Assembly (NCBI GenBank): GCA_963797555.1
Contig: CAWCPV010000006.1
Span: forward strand, 1-64,000
Length of the DNA: 64,000 nt
Direction: 5' to 3'
From: an uncultured Gammaproteobacteria bacterium
GTDB taxonomy: Bacteria; Pseudomonadota; Gammaproteobacteria; CAWCPV01
The notes below the pieces were generated by a model that was not told where the DNA came from, searched no databases, and worked only from the letters and a program-made list of their open reading frames with translations. Made by a program: the position numbers and the translations under genes. Shown one piece after another: positions 58,816 to 64,000 of the stretch. Position 1 is the first letter of the stretch. Each line of letters opens with the position of its first letter.

Positions 58816-60903
58816 TCAGGGGGCCGCTGGCGGCGGCTCCTGCTCGGGAATCGAGTCCAACTGGGAGAGCCACGCCGCCGCCTCGCCGTCGCTGGGCGCC
58901 CGGTAATCGCCGCGCGGTGACAGCGAGCCGCCCGACCCGACCTTGGGCGCGTTGGGCATGGCGCTGCGCTTGAACTGGCTGAGCTGGAAGAAGCGCTCGA
59001 GGAAAACCCCGAGCCACCGGCGTATTTCGGCGATGGTGTACTCGCGGCGCTCGGACTCCGGGATATCCGGCCACACGCCGCGCGCCGCATCGTGCCAGGC
59101 GCACCAGGCGAGGAAAGCGACCTTCGGCGGGGCGTAGCCGAAGCGCAGGATTTGGTAGAGATTGAAGTCCTGCAGCTCGTAAGGACCGACCACCGCTTCG
59201 GTGCGCTGATTCGGCTGCCCGCCCTCCCCGTCCGGCTCCGCGGGGACCAGCTCGGGACTGATCTCGGTCTCCAGCACCTCCTCCAGCACCGCACTCACCT
59301 CGGGGCCGAGCTGACGCGTCTTCGCTACCCAGCGGATCAGGTACTGGATCAGCGTCTTCGGGACGCTGGCGTTCACGCCGTAGTGGGCCATCTGGTCGCC
59401 CACGCCGTAGGTGCACCAGCCCAGGGCCAGCTCGCTGAGATCGCTGGTCCCGACCACCAGGCCGCCGTGGCGGTTCGCCAGCCGGAACAGCAGGCTGGTG
59501 CGTGCGCCCGCCTGCACGTTCTCGAAGGTCACGTCGTACACCGGCTCACCCCGCGCGTAGGGGTGATCGATGTCGCGCAGCATCTGCAGGCAGCCGGGGC
59601 GGATGTCCACCTCCCGCGCGGGGCACCCCAGGGCCGCGATGAGGCGCCGCGCCTGCGCCAGGGTGCGGGCGCTGGTCGCGAAGCCCGGCAGGGTATACGC
59701 AAGCACATGGCTGCGCGGCAGCCCCAGCACGTCCATGGCGTGGCCGCACACCAGCAGCGCCTGGGTCGAGTCGAGCCCCCCCGAGACGCCGATGACCACC
59801 TTGTCCACTTGCGCGGCGTGCAGGCGCTTCACCAGCCCCTGCACCTGGATCTCGTACACCTCCCGGCAGCGCTCGTCGCGCCGGTTCGGATCGCTCGGAA
59901 CATAGGGGAAACGCTCGTAAGCCCGCTCCGGCAGCAGCACGCCCCGGCTGGGAAGGTCGAGCGGCACCGGCACCGTACGATAGTCCTGCAGGTCCTGCCG
60001 GTGGCGGTAGCGTGCCTGGGCGAAGGTGCCCTGGCGCATCCTGTCCTGAACGAGACGCTCCAGGTCGACGTCCCCGGTGACGAGCTGGGCGCTATAGCGG
60101 AACCGCTCCGACTCCGCGATCCGCGTCCCGTTCTCGTAGATCAGGGCGTGCCCGTCCCAGGCCAGCTCCGTGGTCGACTCCCCGCTCCCGGCCGCGCAGT
60201 ACACGTAGGCCGCGAGGCAGCGCCCCGACTGGTTCTCCACGAGCTGGCGGCGGTAGTCCGCCTTGCCCACGGTGATGTTCGACGCGGACAGGTTCACGAG
60301 CACCGTGGCGCCCGCCAGCGCCGCATAGCTCGAAGGCGGGATGGGCACCCAGAGGTCTTCGCAGATCTCCACCGAGAAGGTCAGCAGCGGCTGACTCTCG
60401 GCCGCGAACAGCAGGCGGTTGCCGAAGGGCACGTCGCGGCTCCCGAGCAGGTCCACGGTGCTCCTGCCGGCCACGTCCGCCGGCGTGAACTGGCGCAGCT
60501 CGTAGAACTCCCGGTAGTTGGGGAGGTAGGTCTTGGGGACGATCCCCAGCAGCTTGCCGCGGTAAAGCACCGCCGCGCAGTTGTAGAGCAGCCCGTCCAC
60601 TTGGAGCGGCAGCCCCACTACCGCGACCACGGGCAGCGCATGGGAGGCGTGCAGGATACGCGACAGAGCGTCCACGCAGCCGTCCAGCAGCGCCTGCTGG
60701 TGGAACAGGTCCTCGCAGGAATAGGCCGACAGCCCCAATTCCGGGAACACGACCAGCGCCGCCCGCCGCGCCGCCGCCCGTTCCAGCAGCGCGATGGTCT
60801 GGGCGGCGTTGAACGCCGGGTCCGCCACCTTCACCTCGGGCGACGCGGCCGCGACCCGCACCATACGGTGGCGGTAAAGGTTGAAGAAGTCTTCGGTTTC
60901 CAT
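58816..60903 (-). CDS. nadE: Glutamine-dependent NAD+ synthetase
   Basis: N-terminal nitrilase/CN-hydrolase domain (…[16 protein letters not shown]…) and C-terminal NAD-synthetase domain with the PP-loop GVSGGLDST. Start at the ATG at 60903. The track's 120-aa N-terminal extension is the DGR template repeat, not coding. Confidence 0.88.
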
Positions 60904-61154
60904 GGCCTGTCGCGGAGCTTCGAGCCAGACCACTCTAGTGGAGCGAGCGCTGCCGCCGCAAGGGCGCTGAATCCTCGGTCCGGTAGCCGGCTGGAGGGCG
61001 ACCCCGATTCCCTGTGTAAGACATCCCGGCGGCTGTCGCTCCCGCCGGGAGCCAGGACAGCCGCCGGGCACCGCTCTCATCATGACCGGCGTTGGACGCG
61101 CGAGCGCACTCCTGGCCCGTCCTTGAACGGGCCGGCTCCCGCCTCGCAGCGTAC

Positions 61155-61267
61155 TGGCAACACGAAACCCCAGGTTGTTGTTCCGATCGGAGACGGTATT
61201 CCTGTTGCGGTTGGCGGAGCGCACGTTCTGCGGGGTATTGTTCCAACTGCCGCCGCGGTTCACGCGC
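61155..61267 (-). repeat. DGR template repeat TR_A
   Basis: On the minus strand it reads …AACCGCGGCGGCAGTTGGAACAATACCCCGCAGAACGTGCGCTCCGCCAACCGCAACAGGAATACCGTCTCCGATCGGAACAACAACCTGGGGTTTCGTGTTGCCAG. Compared with the VR at 62805-62920 there are 18 substitutions at TR adenine positions and only 2 elsewhere. Confidence 0.75.
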
Positions 61268-61281
61268 CGCCCTGACGCCGG

Positions 61282-62373
61282 TCAGGCTCCCGCGGGCCGG
61301 TCGGACCCGGCAGGTGCCGGGTCGAACCAGCCGCCGCGAAAGATGGCGTGGCGCAGCCGCCGCGTGTGCCCATGCGCGGCGTGCGCGACCCAGGACTGCA
61401 CCCGTTGGCGCACCTCCTTCTCGGTGACGGTCCCCTGCCCCCAGCGGTCGCGCAGCCCCCGCAAACGGTTGCGGAAGCGCCGGACATTGGATTCCGGCAG
61501 GCGCCGCCGCCCGTTTGCGTGCAGCTCGAAGCCGAGGAACGTCGCCGGCTCGGCGGTCGCCAGAACCAGGGTCTTGTCCGGGTGCAGCGACAGGCGGCGC
61601 CGGGCGAGATATTCGGCGATGCGCTCCCGCCATGCCGCGAGCTGCGCCGGGTCGTCGTGGAACAGTGCCAGATCGTCCACGTAGCGGACATAGCCGGGCG
61701 CGCGCAGGACTTCCTTGACGAAGTGGTCCAGGCCATCCAGGTAGACGTTGGCGAAGAGCTGGCTGGTCAGGTTGCCAATGGGCAGCCCGCGGCGGCGCTC
61801 GAAGGGTGTGAACAGGCCGTCACCCGGGTAGTAGAGATGGACCGGCTCCTGGGGATTGGAGCCGTCGACGATCAGGTCCAGCAAGCGCAAGGCGCGCGCG
61901 CAGGCGATGCGCCGGCGCAGATCCCGCTTCAGGATGGCGTGGTCGATCGCCGGAAAGTACCGGTAGATGTCGGCGCGCAGCACGTATCGGTGGCGGTCGC
62001 GGTAATGCTCGTAGCGGGCAACGGCGCGGTGGGTGCCCTTGCCCCGGCGGTTGGCGAAGCTGTCCGGGATGAAGCCGCGCTCGAACAGCGGCTCCACCAC
62101 GGCGCAAAGGGCATGATGCACCACCCGGTCGCGAAACGGCGCGGCCGACACCCGCCGCGGCTTGGGGTCGCGCACCTCCATCACCGTGTAGCCGCCGGGC
62201 CTCCACGAGCCGTCGCGCAGCGCCCGCTCCAGGACCAACAGGTTCGTCTCCAGTCCCGCCAGGAAGGCGGCGACGCCGGCCTTGGCGCGCTTGCCGCGCG
62301 CCGCCCGCTGTGCCGCCGCGTGCAGGGCGTGAAAGTTGGCGATGCCCTCGAACAGATGATCAGCCCTGCGCAC
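61282..62373 (-). CDS. DGR reverse transcriptase
   Basis: 363 aa. RT motifs include LPIGNLTSQLFANVYL (the DGR-specific [I/L]GxxxSQ) and YVRYVDDLALF (YxDD box). Compact size is typical of Brt-like DGR RTs. Confidence 0.85.
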   Translation of the reverse strand: MRRADHLFEGIANFHALHAAAQRAARGKRAKAGVAAFLAGLETNLLVLERALRDGSWRPGGYTVMEVRDPKPRRVSAAPFRDRVVHHALCAVVEPLFERGFIPDSFANRRGKGTHRAVARYEHYRDRHRYVLRADIYRYFPAIDHAILKRDLRRRIACARALRLLDLIVDGSNPQEPVHLYYPGDGLFTPFERRRGLPIGNLTSQLFANVYLDGLDHFVKEVLRAPGYVRYVDDLALFHDDPAQLAAWRERIAEYLARRRLSLHPDKTLVLATAEPATFLGFELHANGRRRLPESNVRRFRNRLRGLRDRWGQGTVTEKEVRQRVQSWVAHAAHGHTRRLRHAIFRGGWFDPAPAGSDRPAGA

Positions 62374-62758
62374 CGCGGTCGGCCTTCATCCAGCCCCCCA
62401 CCAGCCGCCCCACCTCGTCCACGCTGCGGGCGACGTGCTCGTAACGGCGCAGATCGAGGTAGCCGAGATCCTTCGATAGCCGAAACAGAAAACGCAGCTT
62501 CTCCAGCCGCAGGTTCACCCGGCGCAGGATCGGCGCCGCCTCGCGCGTGTAGGTGGCCTCGATCAGCCCTTCCAGCAAGTCCAGCGCCGTGCCCTGGATG
62601 CGGTCGCCCAGCAGGAAGCGCTGGCTGCGCGGGAACTTCTCCACCGTCGGGATCATCCACAGCAGAAACTGGTAGGCCCGCTCCAACGCCGGGCCGTGGC
62701 GCCGCGCCGGGTCGGGCTGCCGACCCGGCGCGGCGCGCGGTGGCTGGGTGCTCGCCAC
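62360..62758 (-). CDS. Accessory variability determinant (Avd), four-helix-bundle protein
   Basis: 132 aa. ERAYQFLLWMIPTVEKFPRSQRFLLGDRIQGTALDLLEGLIEA matches the bAvd / TIGR02436 four-helix-bundle family. Overlaps the RT start by ~14 nt. GTG start. Confidence 0.75.
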   Translation of the reverse strand: MASTQPPRAAPGRQPDPARRHGPALERAYQFLLWMIPTVEKFPRSQRFLLGDRIQGTALDLLEGLIEATYTREAAPILRRVNLRLEKLRFLFRLSKDLGYLDLRRYEHVARSVDEVGRLVGGWMKADRGAQG

Positions 62759-62801
62759 GACGGGGTAAAGGGGTAAAGAAGCTAAGCCCTAAGCTGCCGT
62801 T

Positions 62802-63968
62802 TCACGGCAGCGTCCTGGCAACACGAAACCCCGGGGCGCCGTTCCGAGCGGAGACGGGATACCAGCCGCGGCTGGCGGAGCGCACGAACAGCGGGGAAGA
62901 GTCCCAACTGCCGCCGCGGTTAACGCGCCGCCCGCAGTCGCCCCGGTGGCTGGCGCTGCCGTCGGCCGGCGCGCCCGCGTAGCTCTCGTCGTAGCAGTCC
63001 TCGGTCCATTCCCAGACGTTTCCCAGCATGTCGTAGAGCCCGAATGCGTTCGGCCGGAAGGAGCCCACCGGGGCGGTGTCGGGGTAGCCGTCGTCGCAGG
63101 CGAAGGCCGGCCAAGGGTACCGCGACGAATATTTGGTCTCGCCGGACCAATCATAGACGTTGGCGAACTGACAGGCGCGGTCCGTCGACGTGCCCCAGAA
63201 CCGGGGCTTCTGCGATCCGGCGCGCGCCGCGTACTCCCACTCCGCCTCGCTCGGCAGACGGTATCCCTTGCCGGTCTTCTCCGACAGCCACTCGGTGAAG
63301 CCCACCGCCTCCTCCCAGGTGACGTTGATGACCGGCTGGCGACCGCGGCCCCAGCCCTCGTCTCCCACCTGCCCACAGTCCCCGGCACGCGCGCACGCGT
63401 CCCACTCGTTGAAGGTCACCTCGTACTTGCCCAGCGCAAAGGGCTTCGCCAAGGTGACCTCGTGGGCGGGCCCCTCGTTGTTGTCGCGCCCCGCCTCGCT
63501 GGGCGGCGAGCCCATCACGAAGGACCCGGCCGGGATGACCACCATCGCCGGGCAAACGTCGCAGTCCTGGAACTCGGTGCCGGGCTTAGGGTAACGCGGC
63601 GCGGCGCTGGCGGTGCCCTTCCCGGACAGCTCGGCGAGGCGGCGCTTCGCCTGGGGTGCCACCGGGCTGTTCGGGTCCGCCTTGAGCGAGGCATCGAAGC
63701 GCGCGCGGGCCTGGTCCTTCTTGCCCAGCGCCAGATAGGTCTCGCCCAGGTAGTAGTTCGCCGGGGCATTGTCGGGCTCGACCTTGAGCCCTTGCTCGAA
63801 CTTGGCCGCCGCTGCGTCGAGCTTGCCCGCCTTCCTCAGCTCGAAGGCGTCGAAGAACAATTGCTGCGCGCCCCCTTGCTGCGCATGGCCATTGCCCGAC
63901 CCGACAGCGGTAGAAAAAAGCACCAACCACACCATGAGCCCAAACGGTTTCAGCAGAACCTTCCCCAT
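62802..63968 (-). CDS. Secreted TPR + FGE-sulfatase (C-type-lectin fold) protein, DGR variable protein
   Basis: Signal peptide, TPR segment (YYLGETYLALGKKDQARARFDASLKADPNS), then FGE/SUMF1 domain (…WEEAVGFTEWLS…WEWTEDCY…GGSWDSS…FRVARTLP). The C-terminal codons coincide with the VR. Confidence 0.8.
   Translation of the reverse strand: MGKVLLKPFGLMVWLVLFSTAVGSGNGHAQQGGAQQLFFDAFELRKAGKLDAAAAKFEQGLKVEPDNAPANYYLGETYLALGKKDQARARFDASLKADPNSPVAPQAKRRLAELSGKGTASAAPRYPKPGTEFQDCDVCPAMVVIPAGSFVMGSPPSEAGRDNNEGPAHEVTLAKPFALGKYEVTFNEWDACARAGDCGQVGDEGWGRGRQPVINVTWEEAVGFTEWLSEKTGKGYRLPSEAEWEYAARAGSQKPRFWGTSTDRACQFANVYDWSGETKYSSRYPWPAFACDDGYPDTAPVGSFRPNAFGLYDMLGNVWEWTEDCYDESYAGAPADGSASHRGDCGRRVNRGGSWDSSPLFVRSASRGWYPVSARNGAPGFRVARTLP
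62805..62920 (-). repeat. DGR variable repeat VR_A (last ~37 codons of the target gene)
   Basis: …AACCGCGGCGGCAGTTGGGACTCTTCCCCGCTGTTCGTGCGCTCCGCCAGCCGCGGCTGGTATCCCGTCTCCGCTCGGAACGGCGCCCCGGGGTTTCGTGTTGCCAG. Followed by a GCTGCCG-tgaaa-CGGCAGC hairpin that spans the stop codon. Confidence 0.75.
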
Positions 63969-64000
63969 CTTTGCCTCCCTTGCGGCGTGGCCGCTTACCA

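Follow-up and report, generated by a model that had tools for sequence, protein, structure and literature searches.

What kind of element occupies positions 61,155 to 63,968 of the 64-kb window analyzed here (positions 1 to 64,000 of contig CAWCPV010000006.1, GenBank assembly GCA_963797555.1, from an uncultured Gammaproteobacteria bacterium), which protein does it serve, and how would it tell the sequence that it copies from the sequence that it rewrites? A preliminary description of this DNA had read the segment as an intact diversity-generating retroelement (DGR), with a template repeat (TR), a variable repeat (VR), a reverse transcriptase (RT) and the accessory protein Avd. Very probably the locus is a complete chromosomal DGR of the B2 type that serves a single exported TPR/FGE-fold protein by diversifying its C-terminal ligand-binding surface. 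Its identity as a DGR follows from the adenine-specific pattern of differences between TR and VR, the family memberships of three proteins, covariation within an RNA domain, and hypervariability across the family of target proteins. All parts of the element are encoded on the minus strand in the order target-avd-RT-TR, and its repeats and genes are positioned as follows.

62802 to 63968, minus strand: target gene, 388 aa (Pfam, PDB sequence matches, AlphaFold2 (AF2) model)
62807 to 62933, minus strand: VR, the 127-nt ungapped repeat shared with the TR
62836 to 62903, minus strand: mutagenized core of the VR, equal to target residues 356–378
62360 to 62758, minus strand: avd, 132 aa (NF033474, PF22296)
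61282 to 62373, minus strand: DGR reverse transcriptase, 363 aa (IGNLTSQ, YVDD; best PDB match 8ub7)
61146 to 61272, minus strand: TR, the 127-nt repeat shared with the VR
61175 to 61242, minus strand: adenine-mutagenized core of the TR, with 23 adenines

The TR and VR were found by repeat search as an ungapped direct repeat of 127 nt with an offset of 1661 and 83% identity. The two copies differ at 21 positions, 18 of which are adenines in the TR; a mismatch is thus present at 18 of 28 TR adenines and at 3 of 99 non-adenine positions (Fisher one-sided p = 4.1e-12). Within the 68-nt core 18 of 23 adenines are changed (A>G, 7; A>T, 7; A>C, 4), and none of the 45 other bases is. This adenine-specific pattern proves at least one past mutagenic transfer. 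The preliminary description had proposed checking whether mismatches concentrate at template adenines, and on alignment they do (p = 4e-12). The repeat that it described as a 113-bp template is real, though longer at 127 nt, and the partner that it placed at 62805–62920 is displaced, since 61155–61267 matches 62816–62928. Recounting within 61155–61267 reproduced its 18 adenine differences among 20 mismatches, and its codon examples (AAC to GAC, TTC, AGC, GGC or GCC; AAT to TCT or TAT) are all correct.

Each of the 23 core adenines falls at codon position 1 or 2 in the reading frame of the target. They are distributed over 14 variable codons, consisting of nine AAY, two ACC, and one each of CAG, AGG and GAT, with one codon added to the count by hand. 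The capacity at these codons is 4^23 DNA variants, or approximately 3e13 protein variants, and a stop codon is impossible. The three differences at non-adenine positions all lie outside the core: a synonymous G>T on the 5′ side, and two changes on the 3′ side, T>C (61172) and T>G (61153), both past the last site of adenine substitution. Non-identical ends of this kind, named IMH and IMH*, occur at the 3′ side of DGR repeats (Wu et al. 2018, PMC5758913). The IMH of the Bordetella phage BPP-1 element is a pure GC stretch, whereas that of the present element is not.

Could the repeat pair instead be an ordinary duplication or gene-conversion tract joining the end of the FGE-fold gene to an intergenic copy, with the RT nearby by chance? 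Short direct repeats are common in GC-rich DNA, and 36 repeat families were counted in 6 kb at this locus; the other families nearby are, however, all 39 nt or shorter and of low identity. Nor would a neutral process place 18 of 21 differences at adenines in just one of the two copies, and dozens of loci, belonging to several phyla, show the same layout and bias. The bias, together with its repeated occurrence in relatives, refutes an ordinary duplication, to which we give practically no credence.

The target protein begins with a Sec-type signal sequence, recognized by inspection, and continues with TPR repeats at approximately residues 44–113 (Pfam TPR families) and an FGE-sulfatase/C-type-lectin-fold domain at residues 139–385 of 388 (Pfam PF03781, 5e-60). 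The VR encodes the last ~42 codons, placing the variable codons at the C-terminus of this domain. Sequence matches in the PDB are to PvdO, FGE and the Treponema denticola DGR target TvpA (2y3c; phmmer 1.5e-11). The AF2 model (pLDDT 87.6) was matched by Foldseek to PvdO with a target-normalized TM-score of 0.87, to FGE at ~0.7, and to TvpA at 0.68 (E 2.7e-14). Pfam, PDB and AF2/Foldseek results thus agree with the secreted FGE/C-type-lectin-fold target carrying the VR at its end that had been proposed at the outset. In an alignment of 43 homologues, mean entropy is 3.1 bits at the 14 positions templated by TR adenines compared with 0.67 bits at the interleaved positions, and this difference argues that the whole target protein family is diversified at the same 14 sites.

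Like the present target, TvpA has an FGE-type C-type-lectin domain and carries the VR at its extreme C-terminus. Targets of category 'b', which combine an FGE-sulfatase domain with a CLec1 VR, form the largest class, accounting for 19% of DGRs (Wu et al. 2018, PMC5758913). The Treponema element itself, of architecture C, relies on an HRDC accessory gene and serves several targets at dispersed positions (PMC5758913). In contrast, the present element has avd, an N-terminal TPR module on its target, and a single VR in the 64-kb window; no second VR was found when the window was scanned on both strands with the TR, whole and in 40-nt pieces, ignoring adenine positions. The window stops 32 nt upstream of the target gene, and further targets past position 64,000 are possible.

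The RT has as its best PDB match 8ub7, the BPP-1 bRT (E 5e-44), followed by the group II intron RT GsI-IIC (1e-18). Aligned with BPP-1 Brt it shows 33% identity over 342 aa (E 3e-51), with IGNLTSQLFANVY opposite IGSLTSQLFANVY, IGNLTSQ opposite IGSLTSQ, and YVDD opposite YMDD. RTs of the DGR clade are distinguished by [I/V/L]GxxxSQ in place of the group II QGxxxSP, together with a catalytic YxDD, and IGNLTSQ and YVDD correspond to these motifs in the present enzyme. Avd scores 107.5 bits against NCBIfam NF033474 DivGenRetAVD (cut-off 80) and 62.2 bits against Pfam PF22296 bAvd (cut-off 40); this accessory protein is found in most, though not all, DGRs.

An RT of another class (group II intron, retron or DRT) might be entertained, as the top NCBIfam score is to the group II model TIGR04416 and there was no match to a DGR-specific RT in NCBIfam. 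That score of 121.5 bits is, however, far below the cut-off of 300, and the Retron St85 model (42 bits, cut-off 235) and the Drt2-5 models (15–42 bits, cut-offs 200–550) likewise fall far short. Rfam results for the window include neither a group II ribozyme RNA nor a retron RNA, and both candidates were rejected. With the DGR motif in place of QGxxxSP, and with bRT as the closest solved relative by 25 orders of magnitude over group II, we regard an RT of another class as having next to no chance of being correct. The two same-strand partners named in the preliminary description, a 363-aa RT with the IGNLTSQ motif and a 132-aa Avd, stand as described.

The start of the RT gene (GTG at 62373) overlaps the 3′ end of avd by 14 nt (62360–62373), which suggests that translation of the two is coupled. 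Scanning one genome per species gave 80 loci with related RTs, with hosts in the Chromatiaceae (85% identity), Burkholderiales, Alphaproteobacteria, Binatia, Latescibacterota, Dehalococcoidia and others, and simple self-comparison found adenine-biased TR/VR pairs in most of them. Among the 44 loci with a detected TR/VR pair and an RT at ~45% identity or more, approximately 40 have the order target-avd-RT-TR; in these the RT is followed 10–100 nt later by the TR, and the VR precedes avd. At 36–41% RT identity the order is avd-TR-RT. The order of the present locus, initially described as one of the less common, is the named architecture B2 (avd-RT-TR; Wu et al. 2018, PMC5758913); judging from these gene orders, it is a lineage trait.

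The closest relative, in a Chromatiaceae metagenome-assembled genome (L001; 85% RT identity), has a TR 90% identical to the present one, and the VRs of the two loci differ at 30 of 127 positions. Five relatives (L005, L008, L028, L029 and L039) have two or three VRs per TR, some of them past the RT/TR end of the cassette. The element shares its gene order, target family, TR length (~115–135 nt), an RNA domain 3′ of the TR and a motif flanking the VR with the B2 DGRs of Wu et al. and with the environmental proteobacterial RT clade (L001–L055). It differs from that clade in details alone: it possesses a hairpin after the VR, which a minority of members carry, it lacks the terminator-like hairpin of many relatives between target and avd, and its neighbor is nadE.

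The RNA domain occupies ~150 nt directly 3′ of the TR, and it is conserved and structured across the clade. Its elements, together with the nadE gene beyond it, are positioned as follows.

61275 to 61285, minus strand: 5′ arm of the bracket duplex, CUGACCGGCGU, which pairs with 61082–61092 in the minimum free energy fold
61012 to 61165, minus strand: structured non-coding RNA domain, joined to the TR 3′ end (33-locus covariation and covariance model)
61149 to 61152 with 61096 to 61099, minus strand: helix H1, TR ACGC paired with GCGU (covariation alignment)
61111 to 61135, minus strand: H3, a 10-bp hairpin with a CAAG loop
61082 to 61092, minus strand: 3′ arm of the bracket duplex, ACGCCGGUCAU, complementary to CUGACCGGCGU at 61275–61285
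61076 to 61081, minus strand: conserved single strand GAUGAG
61025 to 61068, minus strand: H4, a long hairpin
ATG at 60903, minus strand: nadE, 695 aa (NF002730)

In the 33-locus alignment 94.9% of cells are standard pairs, compared with 36–47% when the partners are slid by 1–3 columns, and compensatory changes are present in 27 of 33 pairs; none of 500 shuffles reached the observed values. H3 is nested inside H1 and the two-pair helix H2, and a near-invariant single strand, GUCCA...GGUCAUGAUGAG, comes after H3 and before H4. The bracket is a long-range duplex of 11 bp that encloses the TR and has every pair intact here; the RT stop codon (61282–61284) falls within its 5′ arm, which lies shortly before the TR. 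The two arms change together in nearly all of the 33 loci, e.g. CUGGCCGCCCC/GGGGCGGCCAU and GCUUGCCCAUCC/GGAUGGGCAAAGC.

With a covariance model trained on these 33 loci, 23 held-out loci gave matches of 35–128 bits to the domain, always directly after the TR; the present locus, itself a training member, scores 132 bits, the highest of all loci. The matches include four loci in which the TR and its RNA are upstream of the RT in the order avd-TR-RNA-RT (L038, 3342–3516; L039, 3423–3610; L043, 3082–3257; L049, 3405–3619). Since the domain follows the TR even where the TR precedes the RT, the structured RNA belongs to the TR rather than to the RT gene, and the layout of these four loci indicates that the TR and its RNA move as one module. 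No Rfam family was found for the RNA domain, either in the region at E<=1 or in the whole window at gathering scores.

No U-tract comes after H4 in the present locus, in contrast to L001, L019, L024 and L045, so that a transcript may continue into nadE, which has the same orientation and lies 120 nt further on. The 695-aa product from the ATG at 60903, which is also the gene call on record, matches the NAD+ synthase model NF002730 end to end at 1051 bits, consistent with the earlier proposal that the N-terminal extension of the nadE open reading frame is the TR itself: the 815-aa frame at 58816–61263 is nadE plus an artefactual read-through of the TR. The TR had also been said to abut nadE; instead, the nadE ATG is separated from the end of the TR (61146) by 242 nt, ~150 nt of which is the structured RNA of the element. 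There are no phage genes near the element, which is chromosomal, and its recent horizontal acquisition is unsupported by composition, with GC content flat at 0.67–0.72. Searches of the whole 64-kb window gave no tRNA genes and no Rfam families at gathering score, and the one terminator-like site in a scan of 60700–64000 is inside avd and is no more than expected by chance.

The best guide to how the parts would work together is the BPP-1 element (mtd-avd-TR-brt, the prototype), for which the RT-Avd-RNA particle has been solved (Handa et al., bioRxiv 10.1101/2023.10.23.563531). In that structure the RNA after the TR consists, in order, of an 11-bp Avd-binding stem with a tetraloop; a strand carrying the priming nucleotide and base-paired to the 3′ end of the TR; two bases on, an 11-bp duplex formed with the region upstream of the TR, at which cDNA synthesis is stopped; a single-stranded thumb ring; and then a long RT-binding stem-loop (Handa et al., 10.1101/2023.10.23.563531). 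The present RNA has the same series 3′ of its TR, with an Avd-type stem-loop, a helix between the TR and downstream sequence, an 11-bp bracket and a long terminal stem-loop, the stem-loop and the upstream/downstream duplex being supported by covariation and shaped as in Handa et al. The two elements are also alike in having homologous RTs, an Avd-family partner, an adenine-specific TR/VR pattern, a VR at the 3′ end of a C-type-lectin-fold gene, and a GC hairpin after the VR. They differ in that the TR and its RNA follow the RT here but lie between avd and the RT in BPP-1, in that the BPP-1 target is a phage tail fibre while the present one is an exported TPR/FGE-fold protein, and in that the present element is chromosomal, with an RNA that has no detectable sequence homology to that of BPP-1 and an Avd too diverged for BLAST.

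From the shared order and shape of these elements we infer the role of each part of the RNA and the priming site. Transcription on the minus strand would cover target, avd, RT and TR and continue into the ~150-nt structured RNA, which the RT and Avd would then bind. H3, the hairpin just 3′ of the TR, is predicted to be the Avd-binding stem-loop, and H4, the long terminal hairpin, the RT-binding stem. H1 is the probable template:primer helix that sets the self-priming site, which would place the start of the cDNA near 61153, with synthesis proceeding 5′ through the TR. The 11-bp bracket duplex would act as the stop for cDNA synthesis. The RT is expected to be faithful at C, G and U and to insert any base opposite A. 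The cDNA would then replace the VR, guided by the IMH, the invariant homology on the 3′ side, and by a flank found only at the VR (the GC hairpin and possibly a tandem CTTTACC element), with an outcome of ~4^23 DNA or ~3e13 protein variants at the 14 codons, none containing a stop.

This brings us to the recipient site, which has two elements at and beyond the end of the VR.

62793 to 62811, minus strand: GC-rich inverted repeat GCTGCCGT-GAA-ACGGCAGC, at the end of the TR/VR homology
62762 to 62792, minus strand: pyrimidine-rich element TTAGGGCTTAGCTT-CTTTACCCC-TTTACCCC with tandem CTTTACC, between the hairpin and avd

The inverted repeat forms an 8-bp stem in the centroid of the DNA fold, follows the VR but not the TR, and has the target stop codon TGA (62802–62804) in or beside its loop. 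The hairpin is shared with L001, L002, L009, L016 and L018, the last with an exact 8-bp stem and a GAAA loop. Retrohoming needs a GC stem of 7–10 bp with a GRNA loop (Guo et al. 2011, PMC3240598). The inverted repeat fits this rule, and by analogy it is a candidate hairpin/cruciform element for target recognition.

The second element is ~30 nt long, has a consensus of about CCTTGAATCTTTACCTCTTTACCTC, and follows VRs throughout the RT clade. A profile made from 30 loci matches only directly 3′ of VRs and always on the RT strand, including in held-out loci and at remote VRs; it has a single match in the 64-kb window and occurs nowhere else in ~0.5 Mb of loci. Examples elsewhere are at L008 1095–1122 and 7505–7534, L028 6972–6998, L029 1519–1543, and L014 8879–8902. 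Most clade members lack the hairpin but have the CTTTACC element, and its retention where the hairpin is missing makes it a candidate determinant of the target site. As it also follows remote VRs with no avd downstream, a role as avd promoter or ribosome-binding site is not its sole explanation. The avd start codon is a GTG only 3 nt past the tandem CTTTACC, and no purine-rich Shine-Dalgarno sequence is visible there (62756–62770). More distant DGRs (L065–L073) have TTGAY-type repeats at the corresponding position.

A further difference between donor and recipient is at 61153/62814, where the base adjoining the TR strand of H1 on its 5′ side is T in the TR and G in the VR. At this position 31 of 33 loci have a pyrimidine in the TR but a purine in the VR. 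We tentatively propose, as a possibility less likely to be right than wrong, that the recipient site in this clade is defined by the CTTTACC element together with this single-base switch, and not by a hairpin of the BPP-1 type. In many relatives (L004, L007, L008, L011, L023, L033, L040 and others) a strong hairpin, approximately GGGGTCCAGGGGGCG-AGCCCCCTGGTCG, followed by a T-run is positioned ~30–70 nt past the VR, between the VR-flank motif and avd. Its appearance is that of an intrinsic terminator placed behind the target gene; it is the terminator-like hairpin that the present window lacks.

Several observations count against a complete and functioning element. In the only other assembly of the locus (Logan ERR11718635, L081) the VR is identical, and the locus as a whole differs by one single-nucleotide polymorphism in nadE. 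The target is a singleton cluster in the protein collection, with no near-identical proteins, and a VR pattern made degenerate at the TR-adenine positions had 0 matches in JGI metagenomes. The T>C difference at TR 61172/VR 62833 makes residue 379 Pro in the target where the TR encodes Leu; the residue is at a scaffold position that is Leu in 32 of 43 homologues, and L379P could be a defect. No sigma-70-like promoter was found by a simple scan of 60700–64000. BLAST of Avd with BPP-1 Avd gave a negligible 21-residue match, and the assignment comes from profile hidden Markov models. The clade covariance model did not match BPP-1 Sp, for which the BPP-1 genome was searched, or the distant avd-TR-RT loci, so that the RNA correspondence is one of order and shape rather than of demonstrable homology.

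The first of these observations bear on whether the DGR was active in the past and is now silent or decaying, with parts that look intact and a VR that is a frozen allele. The identical VR in the second assembly and the absence of allelic variants from the protein database and the JGI metagenome scan would fit a silent element, as would L379P, which fresh retrohoming would probably have erased; L379P may be a spontaneous VR mutation or a sign of no recent retrohoming. Two assemblies are, however, too few to reveal variation, and assemblers collapse minor alleles. The RT, Avd and target reading frames are full length with catalytic motifs intact, and the RNA domain retains its top-ranking score and a fully paired bracket duplex. 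DGRs are also described as broadly active in nature in the survey of Roux et al. (2021, PMC8144416). We consider a silenced element unlikely, and by analogy with BPP-1 the DGR may still be active.

The locus is thus a standard, well-preserved DGR, an already-known kind of system, recorded in microbial genomes by the tens of thousands, with the commonest target class and a named gene order. Roux et al. (2021, PMC8144416) report a catalogue of more than 30,000 DGRs, and with so many known, the gain for the field from one more of this class and architecture is small; further work is worthwhile only on the RNA model and the two candidate cis elements. The former is a covariation-backed model of the domain 3′ of the TR for this clade, in which the RNA travels with the TR whether that precedes or follows the RT. 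The latter are candidate cis determinants of target choice that can be tested for DGR-based protein engineering. If the proposal for the recipient site is true, the CTTTACC element and the base switch would jointly distinguish donor from recipient, and transferring them could give such DGRs new targets. For the organism itself, the reading of the locus as a complete DGR would make one exported TPR/FGE-fold protein of its genome a programmed hypervariable binder with ~3e13 possible variants.

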